The position numbers and the translations under genes were made by a program. From Candidatus Saccharimonadota bacterium (GTDB taxonomy: Bacteria; Patescibacteriota; Saccharimonadia; Saccharimonadales; Saccharimonadaceae): 32,000 nt of DNA. Position 1 is the first letter of the stretch. Every line of letters begins with the position of its first letter. The notes below the pieces were generated by a model. It made no database searches, was not told the DNA's origin, and was given only the letters and a program-made list of their open reading frames with translations. Below, in pieces: positions 119 through 31,217 of this stretch. The stretch is from positions 60,001 to 92,000 of the forward strand of contig DIRZ01000002.1 in assembly GCA_002421785.1 (NCBI GenBank), in the 5' to 3' direction.

Positions 119-2670
<2,552 letters not shown>

Positions 2671-3702: not shown

Positions 3703-3790
3703 GTGTCTATTTCTACGTTATATATAAGTATAGTATATCGCTTACGCTCATAACTTGCAAAATTGTTATGGTTCACCCACAATGTGATAC

Positions 3791-4540: not shown

Positions 4541-4598
4541 TTATCCACAGATTTTGCACTCACTTCATTACCCCCCCGTAATTATCACCCAAACACTG

Positions 4599-4627
4599 TT
4601 GACAGGCTATACCGCTCATGGTATCAT
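4599..4627 (+). promoter_or_regulatory. Sigma70-type promoter for ORF 4664-5875
   Basis: TTGACA (4599-4604), a 17-nt spacer, then TGG-TATCAT (extended -10, hexamer 4622-4627). The predicted 5' UTR is about 30 nt, A-rich, with no clear Shine-Dalgarno. Confidence 0.6.
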
Positions 4628-4663
4628 CTCTAGTAGAAACCTTAAAAATAAAAAATATCCACC

Positions 4664-5875: not shown

Positions 5876-5897
5876 TTTACTCTTTCCCGGTTTCTCC

Positions 5898-5927
5898 GAA
5901 CTGCCGCTGCAACAACAGCGGTAGTTC
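5898..5927 (+). terminator. 12-bp stem-loop between paralog A and paralog B (partial terminator or mRNA-stabilising hairpin)
   Basis: GAACTGCCGCTG-caacaa-CAGCGGTAGTTC forms 12 pairs including one G.U, with a 6-nt loop. It starts 23 nt after the stop of ORF 4664-5875. The sequence that follows (GTGTATATTATGG) is U-containing but is not a clean U-tract. Confidence 0.4.
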
Positions 5928-5940
5928 GTGTATATTATGG

Positions 5941-5970
5941 TTGACCCGGCTGAAGTGCTTATGATACACT
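5941..5970 (+). promoter_or_regulatory. Promoter for ORF 5978-7120, predicting a leaderless mRNA
   Basis: TTGACC (5941-5946), an 18-nt spacer, then TGA-TACACT (hexamer 5965-5970). The ATG at 5978 is 7 nt after the -10. Confidence 0.5.
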
Positions 5971-5977
5971 GCTCTAT

Positions 5978-7120: not shown

Positions 7121-7123
7121 TTT

Positions 7124-8122
7124 ATGACTTTACACAAATTACCCACCATACTCGTATTATCAACACTCATTGCATCGGCCGTTGTCGCGCCGCTAACTGC
7201 CGCAGTGACAGCAACGCCCACCAACGACCAAGGCTTAGCGCTCGAAATTGCACCACCTGTCGTTAACTTCGCCGTCGAACCTGGCGAGACAATTGACTCG
7301 GAGATCGCAATTCGCGACGTATCAACGTCACCGCTTCTCGTCACAAGCGAGATCAATGACTTTACCGCCAGCGGCGATGAAGACGGTAACCCGAAAGTAC
7401 TCACTGACGCCACCGAAAAAAGCCCCTACTCCATCATCGATTGGGTAAGCCCATTCGAGCAGATGGCATTGGAGCCAAAACAGATCAAGAAGCTCGCCCT
7501 AAAGATTAAGGTTCCAGCCAACGCCGCACCTGGCGGCTACTACGGAGTGATCCGATTCACTGCAACGCCTCCCGATGGTGAAACAACCAGCGTGTCGCTC
7601 GCGCCAAGCCTAGGAGCCCTTGTCATGATCCGCGTTAAGGGCCAGGCAACTGAAAAACTAACTGTCAAAGAATTTTACATGACACAAAACGGCAAGAAAG
7701 GCACGTTCTTTGAAGGTATTCCTTTTGAGTTCGTTCAGCGACTCGAAAATGAAGGCAACGTGTACGAGCAGCCAACGGGACGCATCCTCATCAAAGACAT
7801 GTTCGGCAAGCCCGTAGCCAATGTCAACGTCAACGCAGACAGTCGTAACGTCCTTCCAGGAAGTATCCGTAAATTTACTCAGGAATTTGATAGTAAAGCG
7901 CTCGGCAATATAGGCCTATTCGGTAAGTACACAGCCGAGCTAAGCCTTAACTACGGAGATAAATTAACGACCGGGTCCAGCCTAACCTTCTGGGTTATTC
8001 CTTGGAAGCTCATCGCACTGGTGATTATAGGCCTTATCGCAGCCGTCGTTGGCATCCGTTACGCCTTCAAACGATACACTGATCGCATCGTTGGCAAGTC
8101 ACGTGGCTCACGCCGTCGCTAG
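7124..8122 (+). CDS. DUF916/DUF3324-like (WxL-interacting-protein / CscA-like) cell-surface protein with a C-terminal TM anchor
   Basis: 332 aa, starting 3 nt after the previous stop. It has a signal peptide, then LEIAPPVVNFAVEPGETIDSEIAIRDVSTSPLLVTSEINDF...DGNPKV, then W....MALEPKQIKKLALKIKVPANAAPGGYYGVIRF. The second domain reads LENEGNVYEQPTGRILIKD...VLPGSIRKF...GKYTAELSLNY. It ends with a C-terminal TM helix plus a basic tail (KSRGSRRR). This is the architecture I remember for the Firmicute DUF916+DUF3324 proteins of WxL loci. Confidence 0.75.
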   Translation: MTLHKLPTILVLSTLIASAVVAPLTAAVTATPTNDQGLALEIAPPVVNFAVEPGETIDSEIAIRDVSTSPLLVTSEINDFTASGDEDGNPKVLTDATEKSPYSIIDWVSPFEQMALEPKQIKKLALKIKVPANAAPGGYYGVIRFTATPPDGETTSVSLAPSLGALVMIRVKGQATEKLTVKEFYMTQNGKKGTFFEGIPFEFVQRLENEGNVYEQPTGRILIKDMFGKPVANVNVNADSRNVLPGSIRKFTQEFDSKALGNIGLFGKYTAELSLNYGDKLTTGSSLTFWVIPWKLIALVIIGLIAAVVGIRYAFKRYTDRIVGKSRGSRRR

Positions 8123-8135
8123 ATACACCTAATTA

Positions 8136-8144
8136 TGCTATAAT
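8136..8144 (+). promoter_or_regulatory. Extended -10 promoter for ORF 8151-9104, predicting a leaderless mRNA
   Basis: TGC-TATAAT (hexamer 8139-8144) is followed 6 nt later by ATG 8151. There is no good -35, which is consistent with an extended -10 promoter. Confidence 0.5.
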
Positions 8145-8150
8145 CAGCTT

Positions 8151-9104
8151 ATGCTAAAGCACTTGAAGCTGAGCCACCACGCCAATACCGGCAAAGTGCG
8201 GCCCCACGAACATACGTCATACCTTCCACTTGCCTTGGTATTGCTTGTCGTCGGTTTTATACTCACGACCTTCACGACATTTGCCTGGGAACGGCCGGGC
8301 CCAGCTTCCGAATCTGTCGGCCTATCGGGAGTTATGCCTGGTAGTCCCCCTACTGCTGCAGCGGTAATCAAAACGCCTACTACAGGCCAGCGCTTCACCC
8401 AAACCCCTATCACCGTGGCAGGTACCTGCCCCAAGGACACGCTAGTCGAGCTATTCAAGAATGATATTTTTGCCGGATCTGGTGTCTGTACCAGCGAGCA
8501 AACCTTTTCGTTTCAAATCGATCTCCTCATTGGCCAGAACCAACTTATCGCGCGCGTGTATGACGCCCTAAACCAGCAGGGGCCTGACTCTAACATTGTG
8601 ACGGTATTCTACGATGCCTCAAACGCCCAGGGCAGCCCGCTTACATCGCTTAATTTCGGCGGGCCACAGCTCATTATTAACACAGATGCGGTATTCCGTG
8701 GTGCCTTCCCCAACAAAGAGATGTCCATACCCGTTGATATCATCGGTGGTCGCGCGCCGTACGCGGTGAATATCCAGTGGGGTGACAGTACCAACAAAGT
8801 AATATCACGACCCGACAACGCCACCTTCCGCGAATCACACACCTACACCAAGGGCGGTACTTACCAGCTGGCAATTCAGGCAACCGACGCCGACGGCCGC
8901 GTCGCCTTTCTCACAGTAGCAAGTATCGTGAATGGTCAGCCCGACCCAGCTGTCGCCGCTATCGCCGACAACAAGGCAACCACTAACCTATTGCTCGCAC
9001 TGTGGCCGCTCTACGCCGCTACCTTTGCGGTTGTCGTCAGTTTCTGGATGGGCGAATGGCGCGAAAAACGCCTGCTCATCAAGCACGGTGTACTAGCAGC
9101 CTAA
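8151..9104 (+). CDS. Membrane protein with an extracytoplasmic Ig-like domain plus a PKD-like domain, flanked by N- and C-terminal TM helices
   Basis: 317 aa. N-terminal TM helix YLPLALVLLVVGFILTTFTTFAW. PKD-like signature IQWGDSTN...SHTYTKGGTYQLAIQATDADGRVAF. C-terminal TM helix LLLALWPLYAATFAVVVSFWMG. Confidence 0.8.
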   Translation: MLKHLKLSHHANTGKVRPHEHTSYLPLALVLLVVGFILTTFTTFAWERPGPASESVGLSGVMPGSPPTAAAVIKTPTTGQRFTQTPITVAGTCPKDTLVELFKNDIFAGSGVCTSEQTFSFQIDLLIGQNQLIARVYDALNQQGPDSNIVTVFYDASNAQGSPLTSLNFGGPQLIINTDAVFRGAFPNKEMSIPVDIIGGRAPYAVNIQWGDSTNKVISRPDNATFRESHTYTKGGTYQLAIQATDADGRVAFLTVASIVNGQPDPAVAAIADNKATTNLLLALWPLYAATFAVVVSFWMGEWREKRLLIKHGVLAA

Positions 9105-9264: not shown

Positions 9265-9400
9265 GGCGTATTAACACCCAGGAGATACTTCGCCTGGCTT
9301 CACCAGTGATCTCACTACTTTTAAAGTACTCACTAAAAAGCAAACGTAAGTCGGACCCACCATTAAAACAAAAAAACAAATCAGCTTGGCTGGTACGCTC

Positions 9401-12400
9401 ATGCGCGTGCTCTTCGTAAGTACCCTCCTTGTGGGTGTATTTATGGTTGTTCTGTCTGTGGCTCCCAAAGCACACGCCGCAACCAACCAACAAATGAATT
9501 TTCAAGGACGCCTCCTCAATGCACAGGGCGCCGTTGTTCCTGATGGCTTTTATAACATTCAGTTCAAGATATACCAGGATGGTACCGGCACTACTGCTGG
9601 CAACCCCGGGGGAACACTTGAGTGGACAGAAGATTGGCTGAACAGTGGCGGCAAGGGTGTGCAGGTGGTGAACGGGTATATGTCGGTGCAGCTTGGAAGC
9701 ATCAATCCTTTTGCGAGCCAAATCGACTGGAATTCTGACACCTTGTGGCTCAGCATGAACATTGGTAATACCAATGTCAGCTGTACGCCGTTTACGAGTT
9801 GTGCCCCTGATGGCGAAATGGTGCCTATGAAGCGCCTTTCTTCTGTTGCCTACGCGATGAATGCCACTATGCTCAACGGCAAGACCGCTGACAACTTCAT
9901 TCAAAATCAAAATAGCGCCGTTCAAGTAGCCGCCAATATCTGGATAGGCGGCACTACTCGTGCTGATACGGCAGTCCTCTCCCCTACTCTCGACACTGCT
10001 GATGCGACCACCCTCAGCATAGGCGCAACAAATGCAGTGAATGTCAGCATAGGCAAGTCGGCGGGCTCAATATCTCTTCATGCAAGTACGACAACTGTCG
10101 GTACCTCGGGTAGCGCGGCGACTATTAAGGGTGCCACACAAACCGCTGCTAACACTACAGGCGACACACTCACCATTAAGGGCTCAACGGGCAATGGAGC
10201 CGGTGCTGGCGGTCAGCTAGTCATCCAAGGGGGCGATGGCGGCGTAACGAACGGCGCAAATGGTGGTAGCCTATACCTCAGTGGCGGCACTGGCACGGGA
10301 AGTGGTGTCGATGGACTTGTCATCATGACAACCCCCACCTTTTCAACGACTACAAATGATGTAAATTGCTACACCGGAGGGTCCCTTGTGGCATCGAACT
10401 GTACTATTAGTTCAACCTCTATCAATAGTTCATCGGCAGTCATTATTGGCTTCTCTAATGGGGAAAGGACCGCGACACTACCGGATCCTACGATTCTCAC
10501 CGCAGGTCGCGTTATATACATCACTGCCGCAAACGGGTCTAGTGATTTCACGCTAAGCGCTAATGGCGGCGGATTGGGTAACCAGATTGCTATGCGCCAA
10601 AACTCATCTGCTACCATGATTTGGAATGGTAATGACTGGACCGCAGCTGGCGCATCGAGCTCCACGACCCTACAAAGCGCCTACGATAATACCCTGCAAA
10701 GTGCCGGCGGCGCAGAATTGATTGTCAGTAAAACCTCAACGACCAATGGATTAACGATTCGCGACAGCTCTACCAATCCCGTAAATGGAACGGTTATGAG
10801 CATCCAGACGTCGTCAGCTGCCGGGCTGCTATCTGTAAACGGGAATGTAGCCGAATACTCGACCAACAGCGGCGCCGAGGTAGCTGGAGTGAGTGCGACT
10901 ACATTCCCAGCAAACACCTGGCTCCCGATCAGTGGTGCGACAGTCGCTCGCCACACCACTGCTGGAGACTACATTGCAACCGGAAAAGGCTCGACATCGG
11001 TTTTGACAAGCACAACCGCAGGAAGTGGCGTTCGTAACCGCTTGAGCACCGCATTAGTACCAAACATGACATACAACGTTTCATTTGGAACACGACTCTT
11101 AGCCGGGAGCTTCAGTGATCTCCAAGTTTACTATTCAGCAGACGGCTCAGCAGCCTCCGCTCCTTGCACAACAACTAAATCACCCGTGACAAGCATTTGG
11201 ACAAAGATAAACTGTACCTTCGTGGCACCGGCATCTGGAATAGTGGCAGATAACTCTATACTCATCAGACAAGCCAGCTCCGGGACGGCACGCACATTCT
11301 ATGTAGATAATCTCAGCGTCACCGTTGCTGCTGACTTTAATTATGCAACCGATGGAAGTGCTAATGACGGTGATAACTTTACTTCCAACTGGTCATTCGT
11401 CAATGCAACCTCTGGGGCGGGCTCGATTACGCGTAGCACAACCGATGGAGAGGATGCCAGTGATAGCGCACAGGTCACACTAACCACCGGTGCGGCTAAT
11501 GCCGGTATTCGCAACCGCCTTTCCGTCAATCCGCTCCCATCCACACTGTACCGCATGACCGCCTACGCAAAGGTAACCTCAGGAACCTTTACTAATTTCA
11601 AAATTCGTTATTCACCAGATGGCAGCACCGGCTCATCGGGGAACTATACTGATTGTGTCGACTATAATACTCGCACGCTCACGACAACGACATGGACAAA
11701 GATTACGTGTTTCGTTCAAACAAGCAGTACGCCAGCCACAAACCCCCATGCCTACTTTGTTGAAGAGTCAGCTCAAGCGCGCACGTTCCGCGTGGACGCC
11801 TTTACCATGACTCTCACGACCAATACCGCGTCAAACGTACAAATAGGCGGTGGCGAAAATGGTGGCCCGACTACTCTCTTAACACTGGATAAGGCTGCTT
11901 CTGCTCCAATCGCAATCAATAACGATGCGCTCCTCGGTTCGATGTACTATGACACGACACTCGGCAAGCTGCAATGCTATGAGGCAGATGGATGGGGCGC
12001 CTGCGGCTCTAGCCCTGACACCATCGTCACGATTTCTCCAGAATTCACGAATGCAGTACTGCATGGAACGGGTATCGGAACCATGGTTTCAGACCTCTGC
12101 TCAGACACTCTCAATATCAATGATGGATCATCGGGACAGCCAAACGTCTGTGGGACAAATGAGACATTTAACTTTTATAGGTGGACTTCTCCGCAGCCAA
12201 GTGCACAAACATACGGCGTATACGTTACGTATCAGCTGCCGGCAAGCTTCAAGAGCTTCGAGTCTGGCTCCACATCGATAATCGGAAGAACCGACAGCGC
12301 AAACTCTACTATGGAGTATCAGGTGTTTCGCGATGACTCGTCTACTGGCCTCACTACTTGTGGACCGGCCGTCCTGGTGTCCTCTGGAGTTGTGTCGTCA

Positions 12401-12550
12401 TGGCAGCCTGGCCTAGCCACAGGTACAGCCGATCCATCAACTTGCGGATTCGTACCGGGCAACAGTATCGTTTTTCGAATAAATGTAACAGCAAGTCAAA
12501 ATGCAAACGCGTATATTGGCAACCTGAACTTCAAGTTTAGCAACAAATAG
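9401..12550 (+). CDS. Large secreted fibre/adhesin-like protein with two tandem CBM-like (carbohydrate-binding-module-like) domains
   Basis: The ORF is open from TTG 9386. I prefer ATG 9401 (MRVLFVSTLLVGVFMVVLSVAPKAHA|ATNQ, a classic signal peptide). The N-terminal module reads MNFQGRLLNAQGAVVPDGFYNIQFKIYQDG. A Gly/Thr/Ala-rich beta-helix-like stretch follows. Two modules of about 160 aa end in FYVDNLSVT (about 11298-11324) and FRVDAFTMT (about 11787-11813). The C-terminal domain contains LGSMYYDTTLGKLQCYEADGWGACG. Confidence 0.85.
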   Translation: MRVLFVSTLLVGVFMVVLSVAPKAHAATNQQMNFQGRLLNAQGAVVPDGFYNIQFKIYQDGTGTTAGNPGGTLEWTEDWLNSGGKGVQVVNGYMSVQLGSINPFASQIDWNSDTLWLSMNIGNTNVSCTPFTSCAPDGEMVPMKRLSSVAYAMNATMLNGKTADNFIQNQNSAVQVAANIWIGGTTRADTAVLSPTLDTADATTLSIGATNAVNVSIGKSAGSISLHASTTTVGTSGSAATIKGATQTAANTTGDTLTIKGSTGNGAGAGGQLVIQGGDGGVTNGANGGSLYLSGGTGTGSGVDGLVIMTTPTFSTTTNDVNCYTGGSLVASNCTISSTSINSSSAVIIGFSNGERTATLPDPTILTAGRVIYITAANGSSDFTLSANGGGLGNQIAMRQNSSATMIWNGNDWTAAGASSSTTLQSAYDNTLQSAGGAELIVSKTSTTNGLTIRDSSTNPVNGTVMSIQTSSAAGLLSVNGNVAEYSTNSGAEVAGVSATTFPANTWLPISGATVARHTTAGDYIATGKGSTSVLTSTTAGSGVRNRLSTALVPNMTYNVSFGTRLLAGSFSDLQVYYSADGSAASAPCTTTKSPVTSIWTKINCTFVAPASGIVADNSILIRQASSGTARTFYVDNLSVTVAADFNYATDGSANDGDNFTSNWSFVNATSGAGSITRSTTDGEDASDSAQVTLTTGAANAGIRNRLSVNPLPSTLYRMTAYAKVTSGTFTNFKIRYSPDGSTGSSGNYTDCVDYNTRTLTTTTWTKITCFVQTSSTPATNPHAYFVEESAQARTFRVDAFTMTLTTNTASNVQIGGGENGGPTTLLTLDKAASAPIAINNDALLGSMYYDTTLGKLQCYEADGWGACGSSPDTIVTISPEFTNAVLHGTGIGTMVSDLCSDTLNINDGSSGQPNVCGTNETFNFYRWTSPQPSAQTYGVYVTYQLPASFKSFESGSTSIIGRTDSANSTMEYQVFRDDSSTGLTTCGPAVLVSSGVVSSWQPGLATGTADPSTCGFVPGNSIVFRINVTASQNANAYIGNLNFKFSNK

Positions 12551-12578: not shown

Positions 12579-15500
12579 ATGCTACATGTGCGAAGCATTT
12601 TGAGACGTGTGCGTCACTTTGTTCTAGTATCCCCCGTGCGTAGGTTCGCCCTACTGGGTGCTATTTCTGTGCTAATATTAGCCGGCGCCGCACTAGTTAT
12701 TTCTCCACTTCTTTCTAAAAAACCCTATGACCTAGGGCGATCAGCAAAACTACTGACTAATCCGAATAGCCGCATAGCCGGCCAGCTCACGTATGATAAA
12801 GGGTCTTTATCGTTTAACTATAAACAACCCGAACAGGTTAATGGCGAGGCAAATAAAGACATTGAGGCTTCTTTTAATGAGAATATTAGCCAAGGCTTTA
12901 GCGTCAAAGATACAGTCAACGACGTAAGCTTTGGTATGAAGGCTAAAGACAACCACATGGTTGGTCGTCAAGATGAAAACCGCGTTGTCTATCCATTATC
13001 AACTGGGGACGGTTGGACAATATATACAATACAGAAAACCGGTATTAAGGAAGACATTATCCTGACCGAATCGAAACAAGACACACGAGAATTCTCGTAC
13101 GAGCTTGTCTTGAATGATGGGCTTGAGCCAAGAATTGAAAAGGACGGTGGACTTGGTGTGTACGGAAACACGCTTCTTAGTGGCGATATTACCGCCACGT
13201 CAAACGAAGATGTGGAGCTACTAAAAAAAGCTCGACAAAGTGCCGATAAAAATACCTTGCTGTTCAAGATACCCGCCCCCATAGTTCTCGAATCCGGAGG
13301 AAATGAGTCTGAGTACGCCCGTGCGAAGTTTAGCCTATCTGACAACATTCTTACCGTCACGACCACTGGGCTATCTAGAGCGAACTACCCGTTATCTATT
13401 GACCCTAGTATCTATGTAACCAGTGCCCGTGAGTTTATGGCTGGAAATAACGAAACGAACATCGACTTTAACGTAGATGAGCAACTTATCCAAAAATCAC
13501 CGACCACTGGCGCGCGATTCGACCAATGGGATGATACACTATCCCTCCCTGTTGCAACCTCTGCCAATGGTGTAGCAGCTGCCGGTGGATATGTATATTC
13601 GATTGGCGGACGATCATTCCTAGGGCAAGCATTTAATACCCAGGGCGCCGAAACTTTTGTCGTCCCTACCGGTGTTACGAGTATTTCTGTAAAAGTTTGG
13701 GGTGCAGGTGGTGGTGGTGGTGGTGGTGGTGGTTCTACCGGTACTGGAGGCAACGGAGCTGGCGGTGGGTATGTGACAGCCAATGTACCCGTAACTCCAG
13801 GGGAGACGCTCAGTGTCTATGTTGGCGGTGGTGGAAATGGTGGCAATAACGTATCAAACACTGGTAGCGGTGGCGGTGGTGGTGGCTACACGAGTATTTA
13901 TCGTGGGAGCACGCCGCTGGTCATCGCCGCTGGCGGAGGAGGAGGGGGGGGCTCTCGCATCTCGAGGAATGGAGCCGATGGGGGCGCCGGGGGCGGTACA
14001 ACCGGAATTATTGGGGCCACGGTATACAACAACAACGGTGACGGTGGTGGTCCGGGTACACCGACTGCTGGTGGTGGTGGTGGACAAGGTGGAAACAACT
14101 CGGGCGGTGCCGGTTCGTCACTCACGGGAGGCCTCGGCGCCGATGGCCGTAGTGCCACAACTGGCGCTGATGGTGGTGGTGGCTTTGGTGGACTAGCAAG
14201 CGGTGGTGCCGGTGGGCTCGCAAACGTTAACACAACTCGTGCTGCTGGTGGTGGTGGTGGCGCTGGGTACTTTGGTGGTGGTGGTGGTGGCGCCACCTCA
14301 AGTACAACCAACTCATCAGGTGGTGGTGGTGGTGGCGGCTCTAGCTATACGGCAGGCGGCCTGAGTGGAGTAGCCAATAACGCTGGTAGCGGCGTTAACC
14401 CGGGTAATGCTGCTGACCCTGCTCGCAATGGAGCGGGTCAAGGTGGCGGTGGTGGTGCGGGAGGTCAGGGTGGCACAAACGGCGCAAACGGCGCGGTATT
14501 TATTGCCTACGGCTCAGGCACTGAAGTGTCAAAAAATGTCAGCTGGGCAGAGTTCAACTCCGCAACGGGTGAAGTTCAGAGCGCTAACCCCGGGTCAGGT
14601 ACTTGTGCCGGGTGGTGTTCTTCTAACGACTACTCGCTTCCTTCAGAGCGCAGTAACTTCTCACTCGTCGCGTATAGCGGCTACCTCTACGCGATTGGTG
14701 GTGTCGATGCTTCGGGTACCCGAACCAACACTGTCTACATCGCGAAGATTGGCGCCAACGGTGAGCCTCGCCTATGGCACCCCACAGATACCAATCCAGA
14801 CAACTGGGTTTACTGGTACCAAGACGCCAACCTCACATCGGTCCGCTCAGATTTTACCGCAACCGCCTACAATAATCGGCTCTACCTTATCGGTGGCCGC
14901 AGCTCATCTGGTCCGGTCTCTACTGTTGAAATAGCCGATATCACCCCAACAGGGAAATTAGGTGCCTGGTCAGCATCTACTGCGCTCCCTTCTAACGTTT
15001 ATGGTCATGGTGCAGCTATTTATAATGATAGAATTTATGTGCTCGGCGGCTCTAATAGCATAGGAGGCGCTCCTTCGAACACTGTTCGCTACAACAAAAT
15101 TAACACAGATGGAACTCTCAATAATTGGGTCCAAACTACCAATCTGCCGCAAGGACGATTCACCGGCGGAGGTACCATGGCAGCTATCTGGGGGGCCTAT
15201 ATCTACGTCAGTAGTGGGTGTAGTACTGTCAATGGTAGTGGATATTGCACTGGAGTACATTCCAATATTCAACTGGCAAGTATCAATGCCGACGGGAGCC
15301 TTGACGCCTGGAATACTGTCGGTACAGCGGTTGACGAACGACTTGGCGGCAACTTACTCTCCTGGCGTGGTCATTTATACCGAGTGGGCGGGTGCAGCTC
15401 TCAAAACGCCTCTACTGGCGATTGCGGTGCTGCCACTCTTGACTTAATTCGTGTTGGTAAAATAAACCGCGACGGCGATGCTTCAACGGTGGGTGAATCG

Positions 15501-18500
15501 TTTGCTAGCGGCAGTGGAGACTGTACAGGGGGTAACCCATCGCAGTGTAACCTGCCCGGCACAACATATGTCGGTAATATGCTGACAAACAGCTTTATTT
15601 ACAACGGGCACCTCTACATTACCGGCGGATGCACGAACAATGCCTGTAGTTCGACAAGCAACGACGTCGTCTACGCCGCCATCGATACCAATGGCTCTAT
15701 GACTCGCCCTGCAACCTGTAACGGCTCATATGTGGGTGGCTCATGGTGTTATCTCGCCAATGTCCTCCCCAGTGGAGTAGCGGCATCGAGCCCCGTTACA
15801 TTTGGCGGATACGTATACTTAGTAGGAGGACTCACAGGGAGCGCTAATACAAACACCCTGTTGCGAGCCCAACTCAATAGCGACGGCTCGATAGGCGCAT
15901 GGTTATCACAGTCTATGACGGGGGTAGGCGCAGCCAACGTTTCCTACCTATACGCGTACGCCAGAGCAAATCCATCCGCTGTCGCGACTAACCCGGGGAA
16001 CCTGTTCATATTTGGAGGATGCACCAGTTCGAGTTCAGCCGGATGCACTGCGTATACTCAAAATGTCTCTAAGTGTAGCATCGCCAGCGATGGCTCCGTC
16101 AATGGCTGTTCGACCAGTGGACAACTCCAGGTCGGTACAGTACCTGGTGCAACTGGTGTAGGTATCGGTATTATGAGTGGAACAGTGTACGCCAACTATA
16201 TTTACCTCATAGGCGGTGTGGCGCCTGGGCTTGTCGATATGAAAACAGTTCGGTATGCTCGGTTCGACAATAACAATAATGTCGTCGCCGCTAGTGGATC
16301 CAGCTGGACAGAATCACCAAACCAAATGGAAATCGGACGTAGGCGCACCGCAGCTTTCGGATACAACGGCTACATTTACGTCGCTGGCGGGTTCGAAGCA
16401 GGCGGTGGCGGCGTTATCGCAGACATCGAGTTTATTAAAGTCAACGTGAGCGATGGAAGCCTCGGCGACGCGACCGATGGCTTTACGACATCTGAAGTGA
16501 AGATTAACCAACGATGGGGATTGACTCTAGCCGTCTCAAACTCATATGCCTATGTCATAGGGGGCTGTACGATTGGCGATAGCCCTGGAGCATGTACTAC
16601 GCGCACGGATACTATCCAGACGTTCCAGATCTATAACAACGTTAGTGGCGCGCCAGCCGGCTACAGCAATGCCGCAAATACCTATGCCACTAACCCTAAC
16701 CGTCTTGGTGCTACTAGCACTGTGCTAAACGGTCGTCTTTACACCGCAGGAGGTTGCGTCAGCACCACAGACTGTACCAATGCGGTCAACACCGTTTCGT
16801 ATGCACCTATCGACGTCAACGGCAATCTCGGTACGTGGTCAAATACTACAGCCAACCTGCCAGCTGATCGCGCATGGGGCAAGATACTTAACGCTGGCGG
16901 TTCGCTATATTATATTGGTGGCCAAGGTGACGCGGCATCCGATCGTCGCGCCGAAGTATACTATGCAACTCCAGCGGGTAGTGGCAACGTGACAACCTGG
17001 GGAACTGCCTCTAACGGATTACCGAACGCCCGTACAAAATTTGGTGCAGCCAGCTGGAACAATCGCTTATATGTCGTTGCCGGTGAAGGCACGGCCGGGA
17101 CGTGCACAAGCAACCTATGCAGCGACGTCTATGTTAGTCCACAACTAAACAATGGCGGAAACATCACCAGTGCGTGGTCAACAAGCGGTCCGGGTGTCAA
17201 TACCGGTCGCAGTGGTGCTACAGTCACAGCCTACGCGAACAATCTTTATATGTTTGGGGGCTTTGCAGGATCGGGCAATTATCATTCTGATAGTCAATAC
17301 GCACAGATCAACCCATCTACAGGGCTCGTTGGTAGCTGGACGTATTCTGCAAGCCTTCCTAAGCCAATCGGGTTCGCCAATTCGTATGCAGCCAATGGGT
17401 ATATGTACCTCGTCGGGGGGCGAACGTCGGAAGGATCCTGTGAACCGACGACTATGGTTGCTCCAATCAGCGCAAACACCACTATCGCCACTGGAAATAG
17501 CCCAACAGGCATCGGCGCGTGGTACGAAGCCAACCAGAAATATTCCAATTCACGCTACGGAGCTAGCGCTGCCTACTATGATGGAAAAGCCTACTTAGCT
17601 GGTGGTGCCTGTAACGCTGCAACCGCACCAACTGTCGCATCGGCCACAACCACAAATACCGGCGCAGGATTTGCTTCAGACAGCACCACTCATAATGTAG
17701 CCATGCCTGGCACAACAGCGGCTGGCGACTTACTCTTGATGTTCTTTAGCTACGACAGCAACTCAAACCCAACGGTTACCGATCCAGATGGAGCTGGTGG
17801 CTGGACAGAGCTTGCATCAGTTAACAGTGCCACTAACGGCGCTCATGGTTCCGTCTGGGCCAAAGTAGCGACTGGGAGCGACGGCGCGACGGTCAACTTT
17901 GCAACGTCTAATTCACAAAGTGCCGCTGCGCGAGTCTACCGTATACTGGCAGGTGAATGGCACGGTGACCTAACTGGTGTCGAGGTAGCCAGCGGTACTG
18001 GATCGACTACCGCAAGCCCCGATCCACCGACACTCACGCCATCATGGGGTAAAACTGATAACCTATGGTTTGCCTATGCAGCCGGCGGCACACATACTGG
18101 CGTCTCGAGCTATCCAACCAATTATACTAGTGGCGCACACGCAAGTGGCAACACCGGCACCAATGGCGCCAGCGTGGCAACAGCTTATCGCGCGAACAAT
18201 ACGGCGAGTGAGGACCCCGATGCTTTCACCATGGCGAGCAGCCAAACCAGTGTCGCTTTTACGGTTGCAGTCCGCCCAGCTCCTCCTGTGCTCACCTACG
18301 CTGGTGCCAACGAGGTTCAGCAAACTGCGCTGCTCTCGCAACCGCAAATCGCACGCTACTCACTCCTAATGGATACCGACACCGATGTCTATCCCAATGC
18401 ATGGCTCATGAACGGCATCGACAACTCGGTTGGCGCAAACTGGCAATTAAAGTATCGTTCAATGACAAATCCTACCACCTATTGTGTCTCGCCAGCTATG

Positions 18501-18791
18501 ACCACATGGGGGCAGGAAACCGTTTTTGGTAACGTCACCCTTGGGCTACCTGGGGTATACACGCCTAAAAATGGGGCTGGCGCAAACACCGATTGTGCTC
18601 GCTACTTCTTCTTTAACGTCTCGGTAGACAGCTCGCAGGCGTATGGCTATCCAGACGACGTCACGCGCGGACCTACGATTGACAGCCTTTCGTTACAGTT
18701 CACCGGTGATCCATCAAAACGATTAATGCATGGGCGAACATTTACTGGGGGCTTGCAGCAGCCCATTGATACACCATACTATGGACAATAA
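12579..18791 (+). CDS. Giant (2070 aa) N-terminally membrane-anchored surface protein: glycine-rich (ALK/LTK-type Gly_rich-like) domain plus about 18 Kelch-like propeller blades plus C-terminal beta-rich domains
   Basis: TM helix FALLGAISVLILAGAALVISPLL. The Gly-rich module reads FVVPTGVTSISVKVWGAGGGGGGGGGS...GGGYVTANVPVTPGETLSVYVGGGGNGG...PLVIAAGGGGGGG. About 18 repeats have the form (Y/F)xxxxY(I/V/L)xGG, for example YSGYLYAIGG, YNNRLYLIGG, YNDRIYVLGG and NGYMYLVGG. Confidence 0.9.
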   Translation: MLHVRSILRRVRHFVLVSPVRRFALLGAISVLILAGAALVISPLLSKKPYDLGRSAKLLTNPNSRIAGQLTYDKGSLSFNYKQPEQVNGEANKDIEASFNENISQGFSVKDTVNDVSFGMKAKDNHMVGRQDENRVVYPLSTGDGWTIYTIQKTGIKEDIILTESKQDTREFSYELVLNDGLEPRIEKDGGLGVYGNTLLSGDITATSNEDVELLKKARQSADKNTLLFKIPAPIVLESGGNESEYARAKFSLSDNILTVTTTGLSRANYPLSIDPSIYVTSAREFMAGNNETNIDFNVDEQLIQKSPTTGARFDQWDDTLSLPVATSANGVAAAGGYVYSIGGRSFLGQAFNTQGAETFVVPTGVTSISVKVWGAGGGGGGGGGSTGTGGNGAGGGYVTANVPVTPGETLSVYVGGGGNGGNNVSNTGSGGGGGGYTSIYRGSTPLVIAAGGGGGGGSRISRNGADGGAGGGTTGIIGATVYNNNGDGGGPGTPTAGGGGGQGGNNSGGAGSSLTGGLGADGRSATTGADGGGGFGGLASGGAGGLANVNTTRAAGGGGGAGYFGGGGGGATSSTTNSSGGGGGGGSSYTAGGLSGVANNAGSGVNPGNAADPARNGAGQGGGGGAGGQGGTNGANGAVFIAYGSGTEVSKNVSWAEFNSATGEVQSANPGSGTCAGWCSSNDYSLPSERSNFSLVAYSGYLYAIGGVDASGTRTNTVYIAKIGANGEPRLWHPTDTNPDNWVYWYQDANLTSVRSDFTATAYNNRLYLIGGRSSSGPVSTVEIADITPTGKLGAWSASTALPSNVYGHGAAIYNDRIYVLGGSNSIGGAPSNTVRYNKINTDGTLNNWVQTTNLPQGRFTGGGTMAAIWGAYIYVSSGCSTVNGSGYCTGVHSNIQLASINADGSLDAWNTVGTAVDERLGGNLLSWRGHLYRVGGCSSQNASTGDCGAATLDLIRVGKINRDGDASTVGESFASGSGDCTGGNPSQCNLPGTTYVGNMLTNSFIYNGHLYITGGCTNNACSSTSNDVVYAAIDTNGSMTRPATCNGSYVGGSWCYLANVLPSGVAASSPVTFGGYVYLVGGLTGSANTNTLLRAQLNSDGSIGAWLSQSMTGVGAANVSYLYAYARANPSAVATNPGNLFIFGGCTSSSSAGCTAYTQNVSKCSIASDGSVNGCSTSGQLQVGTVPGATGVGIGIMSGTVYANYIYLIGGVAPGLVDMKTVRYARFDNNNNVVAASGSSWTESPNQMEIGRRRTAAFGYNGYIYVAGGFEAGGGGVIADIEFIKVNVSDGSLGDATDGFTTSEVKINQRWGLTLAVSNSYAYVIGGCTIGDSPGACTTRTDTIQTFQIYNNVSGAPAGYSNAANTYATNPNRLGATSTVLNGRLYTAGGCVSTTDCTNAVNTVSYAPIDVNGNLGTWSNTTANLPADRAWGKILNAGGSLYYIGGQGDAASDRRAEVYYATPAGSGNVTTWGTASNGLPNARTKFGAASWNNRLYVVAGEGTAGTCTSNLCSDVYVSPQLNNGGNITSAWSTSGPGVNTGRSGATVTAYANNLYMFGGFAGSGNYHSDSQYAQINPSTGLVGSWTYSASLPKPIGFANSYAANGYMYLVGGRTSEGSCEPTTMVAPISANTTIATGNSPTGIGAWYEANQKYSNSRYGASAAYYDGKAYLAGGACNAATAPTVASATTTNTGAGFASDSTTHNVAMPGTTAAGDLLLMFFSYDSNSNPTVTDPDGAGGWTELASVNSATNGAHGSVWAKVATGSDGATVNFATSNSQSAAARVYRILAGEWHGDLTGVEVASGTGSTTASPDPPTLTPSWGKTDNLWFAYAAGGTHTGVSSYPTNYTSGAHASGNTGTNGASVATAYRANNTASEDPDAFTMASSQTSVAFTVAVRPAPPVLTYAGANEVQQTALLSQPQIARYSLLMDTDTDVYPNAWLMNGIDNSVGANWQLKYRSMTNPTTYCVSPAMTTWGQETVFGNVTLGLPGVYTPKNGAGANTDCARYFFFNVSVDSSQAYGYPDDVTRGPTIDSLSLQFTGDPSKRLMHGRTFTGGLQQPIDTPYYGQ
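13707..13733 (+). repeat. (GGT)9 in-frame trinucleotide microsatellite encoding Gly9
   Basis: Nine perfect GGT codons in the giant gene's reading frame. Shorter (GGT)4-5 tracts lie near 14070-14084, 14242-14256, 14275-14289 and 14319-14333. Confidence 0.9.
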
Positions 18792-19408
18792 TGACTAATA
18801 TTCTACAAAAAACCATGCGTCAGATACGGAAGAACGCGGCGACAGGCACCACCCGACCTGCCCTGAGCCGCAAACAACGCTTGAAAAAGTATAAATTCCC
18901 CCTAGTCCTCGTAGGCATCGCGATCCTGTTGGTTTTCGGCTTTCATATCAAAAACCAGATAGATCAAACATCCACAAAACAGCCAACAGCTAGCACAGAT
19001 ACCGCCGATGAGCCCCCAAAGCTACAAAAAGGCACACCCGATTATGCCACCGTAGCGCCCAAAGGAGTTTCAATTAATAGCCTCGGCGGGTGGACGCGCG
19101 TTAGTCCTCCCGACAGAAACCCCGTGTTTGCCTACGTCCAGACGCTCGGTGACTCCACTATTAGTGTCAGCCAGCAACCTCTTCCTGAAAGCCTACAGAT
19201 AGATTCTGAAGAAGCACTCAGCGCTTTAGCCAAAGACTTTCGTGCTAATGAGATGATTACGGCAGGTGACACACCAGCCTACATCGAGACAAAAAATAAC
19301 GGTGCTCAGTCTGTATTATTCATAAAAAACGGTCTACTGATATTAATCAAATCTTCAAGAAGTGTAGCCAATACTACATGGGTAGAATATATCATTTCAT
19401 TAGAGTAA
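18791..19408 (+). CDS. N-terminally anchored exported protein, translationally coupled to the giant gene
   Basis: 205 aa. Its ATG overlaps the TAA of the giant gene by 1 nt (TAATG). It has a basic N-terminus and one TM helix (FPLVLVGIAILLVFGF). Confidence 0.7.
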   Translation: MTNILQKTMRQIRKNAATGTTRPALSRKQRLKKYKFPLVLVGIAILLVFGFHIKNQIDQTSTKQPTASTDTADEPPKLQKGTPDYATVAPKGVSINSLGGWTRVSPPDRNPVFAYVQTLGDSTISVSQQPLPESLQIDSEEALSALAKDFRANEMITAGDTPAYIETKNNGAQSVLFIKNGLLILIKSSRSVANTTWVEYIISLE

Positions 19409-20653: not shown

Positions 20654-20682
20654 TTGACACTAATTACGGCACCTGCTATACT
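20654..20682 (+). promoter_or_regulatory. Near-consensus promoter for prs, predicting a leaderless mRNA
   Basis: TTGACA (20654-20659), a 17-nt spacer, then TGC-TATACT (hexamer 20677-20682). ATG 20689 lies 6 nt downstream. Confidence 0.65.
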
Positions 20683-20688
20683 GACCCT

Positions 20689-21684
20689 ATGAAAGAACGA
20701 AAGCTGCGCACCCGCCCCGTCATCTTAAGTGGTGAATATAGCCTCCCCTTCGCAGAAAAGGTAGCCGAGCACCTTGACTTGCCCGTTACTCCCACTACTG
20801 TCACGCATTTCGCCAATACCGAAATCAACGCGCACATCGAAGATTCAGTTCGTGATGCAACCGTATTTGCCATTCAGTCACACGGCGCGCCCGTCAATGA
20901 CAACCTGATGGAACACCTGGCAATTGTGCAGGCGGCGCAGCTCGGTTCGGCACACGAAGTAACCGCCATCGCCCCCTACCGTGGCTACGGACGAGCCGAT
21001 CGCATGGCCAAGCCCCATGACGCCTTCATGGGCAAGCTGAGTATGCAGTTCTTCGAACTCGCCCACGCGCGCCGCTTCATCGAAGTCGACCCTCACTCAG
21101 GGCAATCATCGGGCTTTGCCAATGGCATGCTGTATGAATCGATTCCAGCTGCCCCCGTACTCCGTGATGACATCGCAAATGTTATGGCCACTCTCGACAA
21201 CGAGCCCGTCATCGTGTCGCCAGATTTTGGTCGCGACAAGCTAAACGAACGCTACGCCGCCCTACTTGGTGGCCTTGACCTCGCGGTGATCGCCAAAAAC
21301 CGAGACGGCGTCAACCATGTCAATGTCCAGCGCGTTATTGGTGAAGTCGCTGGCAAAGTCTGCTTCATGATCGATGACATGATCGATACAGGCGGCACCA
21401 TCGTGAAGGGCGCGCAGGCACTTCGTGATCGTGGGGCAGCCGCGGTATACATCTACACGACACATCCCATCTTTTCCGATCCGGCGGGTGAGCGCCTGAG
21501 TAAAGCGGTGGCCGATGGCGTGATTAAAGAAGTTGTTACCACCGACACGCTTCGCATTCCCAACTCATTTGACCCGGGTGTCGTACGCACCGTGTCTGTC
21601 GCTCCCCTTGTCGCGGCGGCAATTACCAAAATCTATCATGGCGAATCAGTCTCTGGGTACTTCAACGGTGAAACGCACCACTAA
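20689..21684 (+). CDS. prs: Ribose-phosphate pyrophosphokinase (PRPP synthetase)
   Basis: NDNLMEHLAIVQAAQLGSAHEVTAIAPYRGYGRADR matches the canonical NDNLMELL....A.....A..IT.V.PY.GYARQDR. The PRPP loop is DDMIDTGGT. I chose ATG 20689 (MKERKL...) over the upstream TTG 20638 because the promoter lies inside that extension. Confidence 0.9.
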   Translation: MKERKLRTRPVILSGEYSLPFAEKVAEHLDLPVTPTTVTHFANTEINAHIEDSVRDATVFAIQSHGAPVNDNLMEHLAIVQAAQLGSAHEVTAIAPYRGYGRADRMAKPHDAFMGKLSMQFFELAHARRFIEVDPHSGQSSGFANGMLYESIPAAPVLRDDIANVMATLDNEPVIVSPDFGRDKLNERYAALLGGLDLAVIAKNRDGVNHVNVQRVIGEVAGKVCFMIDDMIDTGGTIVKGAQALRDRGAAAVYIYTTHPIFSDPAGERLSKAVADGVIKEVVTTDTLRIPNSFDPGVVRTVSVAPLVAAAITKIYHGESVSGYFNGETHH

Positions 21685-24019: not shown

Positions 24020-24068
24020 AATGGCACCTCGTCTTTCTTGCAGTGCTTTACAGACTGCGCTAATGTTT

Positions 24069-24144: not shown

Positions 24145-24170
24145 CTAGGTTGGGTCTGACGACTGTCCTG

Positions 24171-24201
24171 AAACAAAAATCACCGCCTTTTTGGTGCGGT
24201 G
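24171..24201 (-). terminator. Intrinsic terminator hairpin plus U-tract between the Gln-codon leader ORF and tRNA-Gln (proposed attenuator terminator)
   Basis: The minus strand reads CACCGC-ACCAAAAAG-GCGGTG followed by ATTTTTGTTT. The stem is 6 bp, the loop 9 nt, and the tail U-rich. Confidence 0.5.
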
Positions 24202-24232
24202 CTTGCTTTTTGTTCTGAATCAACGACAAATA

Positions 24233-24286
24233 CTAAGCAACCGCACGAACGGGTGTGAGAATTTGTTGTTGACGCATAGTAGTCAT
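24233..24286 (-). CDS. Candidate 17-aa leader peptide MTTMRQQQILTPVRAVA with three consecutive CAA codons
   Basis: ATG at 24286-24284, CAA CAA CAA at 24271-24263 and TAG at 24235-24233. The start codon lies 6 nt after a -10 box. The ORF is too short for the supplied ORF track. Confidence 0.35.
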   Translation of the reverse strand: MTTMRQQQILTPVRAVA

Positions 24287-24292
24287 GGCTCT

Positions 24293-24321
24293 GTTATACC
24301 CTATTTACTTTTTCTATGCAA
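24293..24321 (-). promoter_or_regulatory. Promoter driving the leader ORF and tRNA-Gln
   Basis: The minus strand reads TTGCAT (24321-24316), a 17-nt spacer, then TATAAC (24298-24293), then 6 nt, then ATG. I found no credible promoter in the 36 nt between the terminator U-tract and the tRNA 5' end. Confidence 0.5.
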
Positions 24322-26973: not shown

Positions 26974-27519
26974 TTACGCGATCTTTGCGAGCAGCTCATC
27001 GAGCGTTTCGCCCAATTTCGCTGTTACTGCCTGCTCGTCAACAGGCGTACCATCTGGCTGTAGATCCTTCATAAAGAATAGGTTCGTTGCCGTGTCGAGC
27101 ACTTCTGCTTTTAGGTTAGCCGCGAGTGATTCACGCGCAGCCGCATGCGCTTGGTGCGCGCCACTTGTCCAGCCGTAGCCGACCAGCGCCACAGGCTTGC
27201 CATCCCATTCTTTGCCAATCCAGTCGATGGCGTTTTTCTGAATCGCGCTCATGTTGTGGTTGTACTCTGGCGTTACAAATACCACGCCATCTGCGTCAGC
27301 GACCAGTTGCGTCCACTGCTTCACACTATCGTGCTCTGGCACGAAGTCTGGTGATGATGGCGGCATTGGCGCATCATAGAACGGCATGCTTATAGCCGCA
27401 AGATCTGCCACGATTGCGTCAACGCCCTTTGCTTCTAGCTGCGCTTTTGTGAGTGCTACTACCTTATGATTTGCGCTGTTCGGGCGCGCACTTCCGGTTA
27501 CTACTAATACTGCTGCCAT
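26974..27519 (-). CDS. NAD(P)H-dependent FMN reductase family oxidoreductase
   Basis: 181 aa. VLVVTGSARPNSANHKV and FVTPEYNHNMSAIQKNAIDW are typical of the FMN_red (SsuE/ChrR/YieF-like) family. The Shine-Dalgarno AGGAG lies 5 nt before the ATG. Confidence 0.85.
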   Translation of the reverse strand: MAAVLVVTGSARPNSANHKVVALTKAQLEAKGVDAIVADLAAISMPFYDAPMPPSSPDFVPEHDSVKQWTQLVADADGVVFVTPEYNHNMSAIQKNAIDWIGKEWDGKPVALVGYGWTSGAHQAHAAARESLAANLKAEVLDTATNLFFMKDLQPDGTPVDEQAVTAKLGETLDELLAKIA

Positions 27520-30678: not shown

Positions 30679-30707
30679 TTGACTATGCATAGTGTTTGTG
30701 TTATAAT
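30679..30707 (+). promoter_or_regulatory. Near-consensus promoter for ORF 30714-30938, predicting a leaderless mRNA
   Basis: TTGACT (30679-30684), a 17-nt spacer, then TGT-TATAAT (hexamer 30702-30707). ATG 30714 lies 6 nt downstream. Confidence 0.65.
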
Positions 30708-30713
30708 GAATAC

Positions 30714-30938
30714 ATGACTTATAACCCCGAAAGCCGCAAGAAGGATATCATCGAGCGCGTTGGCGATTTCACCTTCGGCGTACAAGCCGTTGGTGCGGTG
30801 GCCTGCACGCTTATTGGGTTTATGCCCGGTGCCGTTGTCCTCGGCGCAGGGGCAGCTCTCGACAAAGCGGGCAACAACCTATACAAACAAGCCCGCGAAC
30901 ACACCCGCCGCAAGCTCGGCGGCATCGCTACCAAGTAG
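30714..30938 (+). CDS. Small membrane protein (hypothetical, 74 aa)
   Basis: MTYNPESRKK... with one hydrophobic segment (VGAVACTLIGFMPGAVVLGAGAAL). The upstream TTG 30696 would place the start inside the promoter. Confidence 0.55.
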   Translation: MTYNPESRKKDIIERVGDFTFGVQAVGAVACTLIGFMPGAVVLGAGAALDKAGNNLYKQAREHTRRKLGGIATK

Positions 30939-30946
30939 CTACTCGC

Positions 30947-31165
30947 TTACAATCCGAACGATTTCAGCGCTTCATATACCAGAAAAGCTGGCCACACCAG
31001 GGCTTTCAAGAACCCAAGCACGCCCATCCAAAAGTCCGGCGCAATCGAAATGTAGTACACTGCTGCACCGATGACGCCCAGCCCGTACACTGCTCCGCTG
31101 CCGCCAGCACTATAGTTGTTGTTACTGTGGTTGCACTGTGCTTCTTTGTCGCCATTTGTCTTCAT
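30947..31165 (-). CDS. Small membrane protein (hypothetical, 72 aa)
   Basis: Two hydrophobic helices (AVYGLGVIGAAVYYI and VLGFLKALVWPAFLVY). It has its own leaderless-type promoter. Confidence 0.6.
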   Translation of the reverse strand: MKTNGDKEAQCNHSNNNYSAGGSGAVYGLGVIGAAVYYISIAPDFWMGVLGFLKALVWPAFLVYEALKSFGL

Positions 31166-31172
31166 AGTTCAG

Positions 31173-31201
31173 ACTATATGCCTATGTACACAGAAATACA
31201 A
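31173..31201 (-). promoter_or_regulatory. Promoter for ORF 31165-30947, predicting a leaderless mRNA
   Basis: The minus strand reads TTGTAT (31201-31196), a 17-nt spacer, then TATAGT (31178-31173), then 7 nt, then ATG 31165. Confidence 0.45.
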
Positions 31202-31217
31202 TCATAGCCAAGCGCTG

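Follow-up and report, generated by a model that had tools for sequence, protein, structure and literature searches.

The window analyzed here is a stretch of 32,000 nucleotides from a Saccharibacteria (TM7) genome (assembly GCA_002421785.1, contig DIRZ01000002.1, positions 60,001 to 92,000). On its minus strand, the region 24321-24145 lies directly upstream of a tRNA-Gln gene with anticodon UUG and encoded CCA at 24144-24069, which was called by ARAGORN and matched the Rfam tRNA model (RF00005) with 59 bits. The region begins with a -35-like hexamer TTGCAT (24321-24316), followed after a 17-nt spacer by a -10-like hexamer TATAAC (24298-24293) and, six nt later, by an ATG (24286-24284). This ATG opens an ORF of 17 codons plus TAG (24286-24233), giving MTTMRQQQILTPVRAVA, which harbors three CAA (Gln) codons at 24271-24263. 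Further downstream there is a hairpin with CACCGC (24201-24196), a 9-nt loop and GCGGTG (24186-24181), with an energy of -8.5 kcal/mol, followed by the U-tract AUUUUUGUUU (24180-24171). Every one of these elements was found where the preliminary description had placed it, although the 36 nt counted there between the terminator and the tRNA run from the end of the stem, while from the end of the U-tract the gap is 26 nt (24170-24145). The generic sigma-70 and terminator scan called neither the promoter, which is weak by the E. coli consensus, nor the terminator, because of its thresholds, and is therefore not informative here. However, the geometry TTG-N20-TATAA-N7-ATG occurs twice in the window against 0.05 expected.

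Downstream of the tRNA, a conserved hairpin GCAGU(9 nt)ACUGC (24058-24040, minus strand) is not followed by a run of U, and it is GCGGU/ACCGC in relatives, which is a compensatory change. A Shine-Dalgarno-like GAGGUG (24030-24025) precedes an ORF of 82 aa (24019-23771) and is conserved in six of the seven lineages described below, 5-6 nt before the ATG, while the seventh (L095) has GAGGAAG instead. The 82-aa ORF has no Pfam match and belongs to a tiny family; a helical hairpin is predicted for it (pLDDT 77), with no PDB fold match below E = 1.6, and its function is unknown. It is followed by a CHASE-domain histidine kinase (HK) at 23754-21961 on the same strand. Pfam analysis of the rest of the window found no GlnRS or GatCAB genes nearby.

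We recovered the same unit in seven diverged lineages, namely that of the window and those labeled here by their loci L007, L008, L040/L103, L090, L095 and L120, whose HKs, where present, are only 52-63% identical to that of the window. All keep a TTG-type -35 element (TTGCAT, TTGCAC, TTGTCG, TTGTGT or TTGCGT) at 17-18 nt from a TATAAC or TATAAA hexamer, which is always exactly 6 nt before an invariant ATG, while the sequence of the spacer is free. The leader ORF is open in all of them (13, 16 or 17 codons) and the leader peptides are MTTMRQQQILTPVRAVA, MTTMQCQQILVHRGAAV, MTCMRHQQILTKP, MTSTRHQQILTKP, MTTMRNQQILTARWSG, MTATRHQQILMHRQAVV and MTAIRHQQILTHRRAVV. Contrary to the three sensing codons of the preliminary description, only the last two CAA codons (24268-24263 in the window, codons 7-8) are invariant; the first one is CAA or CAG in the species group of the window and TGC, CAT, AAT or CAC (Cys, His or Asn) elsewhere. 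Long ORFs in the window use CAA 133 times and CAG 172 times, so CAA is not the default Gln codon. Still, an open frame of 13-17 codons is not significant in itself, as a test of the first stop in each of the three frames was not discriminating and the +2 frame is also open for a long way in several lineages. Close relatives are 98-100% identical from the ATG to the U-tract, while flanking coding sequence is only 80-93% identical, and the few changes fall in the terminator loop, in the promoter spacer and at a CAA-to-CAG change in the non-conserved first Gln codon. Contigs carrying the identical 82-aa ORF were 100% identical over the leader and gave no comparative information.

Synteny study showed that the genes flanking the unit change between lineages. 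The upstream gene is an ABC permease, or DUF5305 in L090, which rejects the reading of the hairpin as the terminator of an upstream ABC operon, since L090 has the same leader. The HK is found downstream in the window and four other lineages but not in L095 or L120 and is thus not a constant member of the unit, whereas the leader never separates from tRNA-Gln and a small ORF of 82-85 aa. A scan of the genome collection with the HK alignment returned 79 Saccharibacteria loci, of which only one (L040) has the tRNA upstream of the HK; the leader is absent from about 75 other Saccharibacteria HK loci, and HK homologs P0006-P0019 belong to a sister clade without the unit. A metagenome scan with a pattern from the 3' half of the tRNA gave 21 loci, only two of which are from this clade, while the rest are tRNA-Gln genes of other phyla with no leader, so that tRNA-Gln loci of other Saccharibacteria could not be compared. 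A covariance model of the leader found no other copies, the weak hits at loci L077 and L017 being ordinary terminators between genes, and a combined structural pattern searched over all loci was too strict and matched only L090. Concerning a separate promoter for the tRNA, the 26-nt spacer is only 88% identical among close relatives and unrelated between lineages, and no conserved promoter-like element was detected in it, while other Saccharibacteria tRNA genes show ordinary TTGACG-17-TATAAT promoters about 20 nt upstream.

The leader RNA can adopt alternative structures. The pairing of GUGCGGUUGCUU (24246-24235) with AAGCAAGCACCGCAC (24208-24194), extended by UUUGU:ACAAA, was proposed in the preliminary description as an antiterminator and is already part of the unconstrained minimum-free-energy fold (-37.2 kcal/mol, z = -2.3 against shuffles). 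Its 5' strand (segment 2, 24246-24226) consists of GUGCGGUUGCUU, UAGUA and UUUGU, and its 3' strand (segment 3, 24213-24194), ACAAA-AAGCAAGCACCGCAC, includes the terminator 5' arm. An additional helix, P1, had been missed: UCAACAACAAAU (24272-24261) pairs with AUUUGUCGUUGA (24231-24220), joining the Gln-codon region to the stretch just after the stop codon, and represents a candidate anti-antiterminator. As a MAFFT alignment of whole leaders misaligned the variable middle and the 3' arm, covariation was examined with an anchored gap-free pseudo-alignment and with permutations of duplex energies. A hairpin of -8.5 to -14.9 kcal/mol followed by a U-tract is present in all lineages, and five terminator pairs show changes on both sides (0-2 of 500 shuffles reach this). 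For the antiterminator, the duplex energy of each lineage's own strands against other lineages' strands was -18.9 versus -15.0 kcal/mol on average, matched by 3 of 720 permutations. Its GCGG core is invariant, and the base 5' of the core covaries with the base 3' of CCGC in segment 3 (AU, GC, GU and UA), although this covariation is modest (25 of 500 shuffles) and the seven lineages are not independent. Sequestration of the terminator arm exceeds dinucleotide shuffles in all seven lineages (fraction of shuffles reaching the observed value 0-0.055, z from -1.8 to -4.25). P1 is in the RNAalifold consensus and also fits cognate partners better (17 of 720 permutations), but at equilibrium it outcompetes the antiterminator only in L007 and L090.

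In order to test whether ribosome position could select the fold, the transcript truncated before the 3' arm of the terminator was folded with ribosome masks. With a ribosome on the Gln codons the probability that the 5' arm is sequestered is 0.81-1.00, while with a ribosome at the stop codon it is 0.00-0.36, and this holds in all eight sequences, although the stop sits at nt 40, 49 or 52. Full-length folds at equilibrium had given mixed results, as the terminator still wins under a stall mask in some lineages (L007, L040). The model therefore needs kinetic, co-transcriptional control, as the trp attenuator does, although it is not known whether transcription and translation are coupled in Saccharibacteria. 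Untranslated RNA is predicted to take the antiterminator fold in five of seven lineages, so the classical rule that no translation means termination would hold only in L007 and L090.

These data support the hypothesis, put forward in the preliminary description, of a ribosome-mediated (leader-peptide) transcription attenuator, to which we assign a probability of roughly 0.6; transcription start, translation of the leader, termination and the signal sensed are inferred and not supported by transcript, ribosome or termination data. According to this model, transcription starts at or next to the A of the ATG at 24286 and a ribosome translates the 17-codon leader directly, without a Shine-Dalgarno sequence. 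When charged tRNA-Gln(UUG), the only tRNA that can read CAA, is plentiful, the ribosome would run to the stop codon and cover segment 2, leaving the terminator 5' arm free, and transcription would end about 26-36 nt before the tRNA gene. When it is scarce, the ribosome would stall on CAA CAA, segment 2 would pair with the terminator 5' arm as it emerges and RNA polymerase would read through into tRNA-Gln(UUG), the 82-aa ORF and, in this genome, the CHASE kinase. The result would be a negative feedback, in which the tRNA controls its own synthesis through decoding of its own codon. The mRNA is probably leaderless, and such starts look normal in this genome: the ribose-phosphate pyrophosphokinase gene (prs) has TTGACA-17-TATACT-N6-ATG, and four more promoter-to-ATG cases open ORFs of 72-205 aa.

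Other explanations were considered less likely. The conserved RNA could be a terminator/antiterminator switch independent of translation, flipped by a small ligand, a protein or the tRNA itself, with the ORF being incidental. The alternative structures are indeed conserved, the invariant CAACAAAUUCU is also one strand of P1, so that RNA structure alone could explain its conservation, the open frame is not statistically significant and many attenuators are driven by ligands or proteins. However, this seems unlikely, as no Rfam family apart from the tRNA matched at E up to 10 in the window or up to 1 in five relatives, the RNA is only about 116 nt without a conserved internal loop or bulge resembling a binding pocket, the ATG is invariant at exactly 6 nt from the -10, the stop codon moves but always lands within or next to segment 2, and the two invariant codons are cognate to the adjacent tRNA. 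It is likewise doubtful that the conserved nascent peptide (R-x-Q-Q-I-L) is an arrest peptide responding to a drug or metabolite, as in ermCL, tnaC or the bmrCD leader. Ribosome-mediated attenuators that respond to antibiotics exist (PMC4191407) and Ile-Leu after the Gln pair is invariant at the amino acid level while the third base of the Leu codon varies (CTC, CTT, CTG), but AUUCU is also constrained by pairing in P1, the element is tied to tRNA-Gln(UUG) and not to a transporter or resistance gene (the upstream ABC genes being replaced in L090), and an arrest peptide would not require that the codons are always CAA.

The least probable alternative is an independent small gene, encoding a small RNA or micro-protein, with its own constitutive terminator and no regulation, the tRNA being made from leaky read-through or an unrecognized promoter. 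Promoter, short transcript and terminator are the anatomy of a small RNA gene, and terminated attenuator RNAs can act in trans, as rnTrpL does in Sinorhizobium (PMC7968998). Nevertheless, a conserved structure competing with the terminator beyond shuffles and with lineage-specific fit is not expected for a plain terminator, the covariance model found no copies of the leader elsewhere, and an essential tRNA 26 nt behind a constitutive terminator, with a non-conserved spacer and no promoter, would be poorly expressed.

Comparison with known systems showed that the element resembles the attenuators of amino acid operons (E. coli trpL, hisL, leuL, pheL, thrL) in its short ORF near the promoter with tandem codons for the relevant amino acid (two, as in trpL, about 20 nt before strand 2), its overlapping helices 2:3 and 3:4 and candidate helix 1:2 ending in an intrinsic terminator, and a stop codon placed so that a finishing ribosome masks strand 2. 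It differs in that the regulated product would be the tRNA that reads the sensing codons, plus a small protein, instead of biosynthetic enzymes, in lacking a Shine-Dalgarno sequence and in the predicted read-through of untranslated RNA in most lineages. The sensed amino acid would be Gln, for which no leader-peptide attenuator was found in the literature searched. There was no match to the Rfam leader families (Trp_leader, His_leader, Leu_leader, Thr_leader and others), and the resemblance is in mechanism, not in descent. Leaderless leader peptides are not new in themselves, as short peptides rich in one residue and predicted to attenuate downstream genes are reported in Deinococcus deserti, for example a 10-aa peptide with two Cys before cysS (PMC4007540); the targets there are tRNA synthetase and amino acid biosynthesis genes in a different phylum, and transcription starts have been mapped. 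T-box riboswitches also report the charging state of one tRNA species through codon-anticodon recognition and a terminator/antiterminator decision, but they bind uncharged tRNA directly without a ribosome, have Stem I, a specifier loop and the conserved T-box sequence, and regulate synthetase or transporter genes. None of these features, no match to the T-box model (RF00230) and, by eye, no conserved UGGN bulge was found here, and the glutamine riboswitch models (glnA RNA, Downstream-peptide motif) did not match either.

Bacterial tRNA genes seem generally to be controlled at their promoters, by growth rate and the stringent response, and among the papers searched we found no attenuator before a tRNA gene and no mechanism that measures the supply of one tRNA species and feeds back on its own gene. 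In the strongest form of the hypothesis, which we regard as about as likely as not, tRNA-Gln(UUG) sets its own level through a closed loop, in which the stall of ribosomes at the two CAA codons of a leaderless 13-17 codon peptide alone opens the terminator. As far as we could find, this would be the first tRNA gene controlled by ribosome-mediated attenuation, the first Gln-codon attenuator and the first cis-regulatory RNA mechanism worked out for Saccharibacteria or the wider candidate phyla radiation (CPR). If the element works as inferred, leader-peptide attenuation can be used as a homeostat for a tRNA, and there is a concrete cis-regulatory mechanism in Saccharibacteria, reduced-genome episymbionts whose gene regulation is almost unexplored. 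The small 82-85 aa protein that always travels with the tRNA would also become a candidate factor in Gln-tRNA metabolism or starvation signaling.

Sequence inspection placed every element of the unit on the minus strand of the window. The ABC-2 permease gene ends at 24355 and is followed by TTGCAT (24321-24316), a 17-nt interval, TATAAC (24298-24293), 6 nt and an ATG at 24286, which opens a frame of 17 codons, with CAA CAA CAA at codons 6-8 followed by ATT CTC, ending with TAG at 24233. A CACCGC/GCGGUG hairpin with a 9-nt loop (24201-24181) comes next, followed by AUUUUUGUUU (24180-24171) and, after 26 more nt, by tRNA-Gln(UUG) at 24144-24069 (Rfam tRNA, 59 bits). After the tRNA come a short hairpin without a U-tract, a GAGGUG Shine-Dalgarno sequence, an 82-aa ORF (24019-23771) and a CHASE-HisKA-HATPase kinase (23754-21961). 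Every coordinate of the preliminary description, which had proposed a leader-peptide attenuator directly upstream of this tRNA, is correct, and the unconstrained fold of 24290-24145 already contains the antiterminator proposed there (-37.2 kcal/mol, z = -2.3). A generic promoter and terminator scan reported neither element, which follows from its thresholds, as the -35 matches 3 of 6, the -10 ends in C and the loop exceeds 8 nt. Rfam found nothing but the tRNA.

Homologs of the kinase are annotated as Candidatus Saccharibacteria or Saccharimonas, while the 82-aa protein occurs with identical sequence in several sludge-type assemblies whose leaders are identical. More distant relatives were recovered through kinase homologs, homologs of the 82-aa ORF and a tRNA-pattern scan of metagenomes, leading to seven lineages that carry the unit (loci are designated by L numbers). 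Their leader peptides are MTTMRQQQILTPVRAVA in the window species group (the window and L114-L118), MTTMQCQQILVHRGAAV in L007, MTCMRHQQILTKP in L008/L009, MTSTRHQQILTKP in L040/L103, MTTMRNQQILTARWSG in L090, MTATRHQQILMHRQAVV in L095 and MTAIRHQQILTHRRAVV in L120 (complete genome CP064995.1). Where present, their kinases are only 52-63% identical to that of the window. The unit is absent from about 75 other Saccharibacteria kinase loci, from the sister clade of kinases (L091, L092, L010) and from tRNA-Gln loci of other phyla. Four AT-rich metagenome contigs (L096, L102, L104, L108) carry an almost identical tRNA-Gln(UUG) preceded by the same AATATTACTCTTGAGGAATTTTTGCAAGAGTAAAA inverted repeat and flanked by small cysteine-motif genes, which could be a mobile or phage-borne tRNA unrelated to the present element. 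Additionally, a covariance model of the leader found no other copy in the window or in 86 loci. Its only weak hits were intergenic terminators in unrelated Saccharibacteria loci, namely L077 at 2284-2320 (+), with the same CACCGCC...GGCGGUG stem plus U-tract, and L017 at about 1835-1870 (-), with a related ATCGCCC...GGGCGAT stem; both are plain terminators and not leaders.

Synteny study showed that the upstream gene is an ABC-2 permease in most lineages but a DUF5305 gene in L090. The kinase follows in five lineages, whereas in L095 (8000-10700) it is absent from the 4 kb downstream of the tRNA and in L120 (1-3300) it lies upstream of the ABC transporter genes; the prs gene and a small convergent gene stay in place. 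The constant block comprises promoter, leader ORF, terminator, tRNA-Gln(UUG), hairpin, Shine-Dalgarno sequence and small ORF, so the hairpin is not simply the terminator of the ABC operon and the kinase is not the obligatory target. The spacer between tRNA-Gln and the small ORF (24020-24068, minus strand; same position in L007, L008, L040, L090, L095 and L120) holds a hairpin with a compensatory change, GCAGU/ACUGC in the window against GCGGU/ACCGC in relatives, and may be a processing or 5'-stabilizing element for the downstream mRNA after the tRNA is cut out. The small ORF (82-85 aa) encodes a real, conserved protein (33-94% identity across lineages), always next to tRNA-Gln and found only in this clade, in 16 clusters among 5.8 billion proteins. 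It has no Pfam match, and its predicted fold, a helical hairpin (pLDDT 77), has no significant PDB match. Elsewhere in the window, two very large adjacent ORFs are located at 9386-12550 (+) and 12579-18791 (+), of 1054 and 2070 aa, respectively; for the first, the only Pfam hit is a weak carbohydrate-binding-module match, and several neighboring ORFs of 250-400 aa (2671-9104) have no Pfam match at all.

In all lineages the promoter reads TTGnnn, 17-18 nt, TATAA(C/A), exactly 6 nt and then ATG, while the spacers are free to vary. Relatives of the window's species group have an 82-aa protein only 68-94% identical to that of the window. DNA identity to the window in L117, L114, L115 and L116 is 74-84% for the permease 3' end, 80-95% for the 82-aa ORF and 92-96% for the kinase 5' end, but 98-100% for the leader ORF, 97-100% for the post-ORF segment to the U-tract, and 100% for both the tRNA and the spacer from the tRNA to the small ORF; the spacer from the terminator to the tRNA is 88% identical. 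The few differences within the leader fall in the promoter spacer, in the terminator loop and at a CAA-to-CAG change in the first Gln codon, which is not conserved elsewhere. This is the footprint of a functional element stretching from the ATG to the U-tract, and it also argues against a promoter in the 26-nt spacer. Other Saccharibacteria tRNA genes in the fetched loci, encoding tRNA-Asn, tRNA-Pro and tRNA-Thr (L048 at about 6607-6670 (-), L060 at about 6535-6600 (-) and L035 at about 2773-2840 (-)), do have ordinary sigma-70-type promoters about 20 nt upstream of the mature 5' end, such as TTGACG-17-TATAAT before tRNA-Asn in L048, and none has a leader ORF or a terminator.

Concerning the leader ORF, the ATG is invariant and the frame is open for 13, 16 or 17 codons in every lineage, with codons 7-8 always being CAA CAA followed by ATT CTN. 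Under the wobble rules CAA is expected to be read only by a UUG anticodon, and long ORFs in the window use CAG slightly more than CAA (172 to 133). The open frame is not significant by itself, because the +2 frame is also long in several lineages, and CAACAAAUUCU is also a helix strand, so these observations support translation but do not prove it. The -10/N6/ATG geometry points to a probable 5'-terminal AUG. The strict pattern occurs twice in the window against 0.05 expected, and several ORFs start 5-8 nt after a good -10 hexamer with a -35 at 17-18 nt, at 20654-20691 (+), 30679-30716 (+), about 18750-18793 (+), about 31165-31205 (-) and about 27366-27405 (-), which suggests that leaderless mRNAs are common in this genome. 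One example is prs, with TTGACA-17-TATACT-N6-ATG at 20689; this start gives a 331-aa product, the same length that the assembly's gene caller gives prs in locus L002, and not the 348-aa longest ORF. Leaderless leader peptides have been described in Deinococcus deserti (PMC4007540).

RNAalifold on the whole leaders returned the "off" fold, consisting of P1 (the Gln-codon region with the post-stop region), an inner CCGC:GCGG hairpin and the terminator. Terminator hairpins are -8.5 to -14.9 kcal/mol and all are followed by a U-tract. On a gap-free alignment anchored on the GCGG and CCGC cores, the terminator has five pairs with changes on both sides, which 0-2 of 500 shuffles reach, while the antiterminator core has one clearly covarying pair (AU, GC, GU, UA, with one mismatch), whose covariation score is reached by 25 of 500 shuffles. 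The extension of the antiterminator differs in sequence and in bulges between lineages (UGCUU:AAGCA in the window, GUUUAAG:CUUAAAC in L007 and L095, and others elsewhere), and therefore the duplex energies of each lineage's own strands were compared with those of all mismatched lineage pairs. The whole antiterminator gave -18.9 against -15.0 kcal/mol, with 3 of 720 permutations as good, compared to 37 of 720 for the extension alone and 17 of 720 for P1. Shuffling the partner region lowered both sequestration of the terminator arm and fold energy in all seven lineages (fraction of shuffles reaching the observed value 0-0.055, z = -1.8 to -4.25).

In order to examine the geometry, each transcript was folded truncated just before the 3' arm of the terminator, with a ribosome footprint masked. 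With either conserved Gln codon in the A site, the probability that the terminator 5' arm is paired upstream is 0.81-1.00 in all eight sequences, while with the stop codon in the A site it is 0.00-0.36; without a ribosome it is 0.85-1.00 in five lineages, 0.00 in L007 and 0.28 in L090. The stop codon lies at nt 40, 49 or 52, yet it always places the ribosome on strand 2, and the Gln codons always lie about 20 nt before strand 2. Full-length equilibrium folds are less clear-cut and, as in trp, the decision would have to be made kinetically.

Taken together, these data fit a trp-type, ribosome-mediated attenuator whose sensing codons are read by the tRNA it controls, a reading to which we assign a probability of about 0.6. 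A switch that does not depend on translation appears unlikely in view of the invariant ATG geometry, the placement of the stop codon and the lack of any Rfam match. The invariant Gln-Gln-Ile-Leu suggests an arrest peptide that senses another signal, although we consider this unlikely as well, and an unregulated small gene with a constitutive terminator is the least likely alternative, given the conserved competing helix.

In mechanism, the element matches the leader-peptide attenuator class on every feature that could be tested in silico, except a dominant 1:2 helix, for which the evidence is mixed. Full-text literature searches found no attenuator before a tRNA gene and no Gln-codon leader peptide, although many subscription papers fell outside the literature searched and absence there is not proof, and a term search within PMC2965389 found no mention of tRNA genes or glutamine. 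The element differs in that its target is a tRNA gene plus a small protein, the amino acid is Gln, the mRNA is probably leaderless and the lineage is Saccharibacteria.
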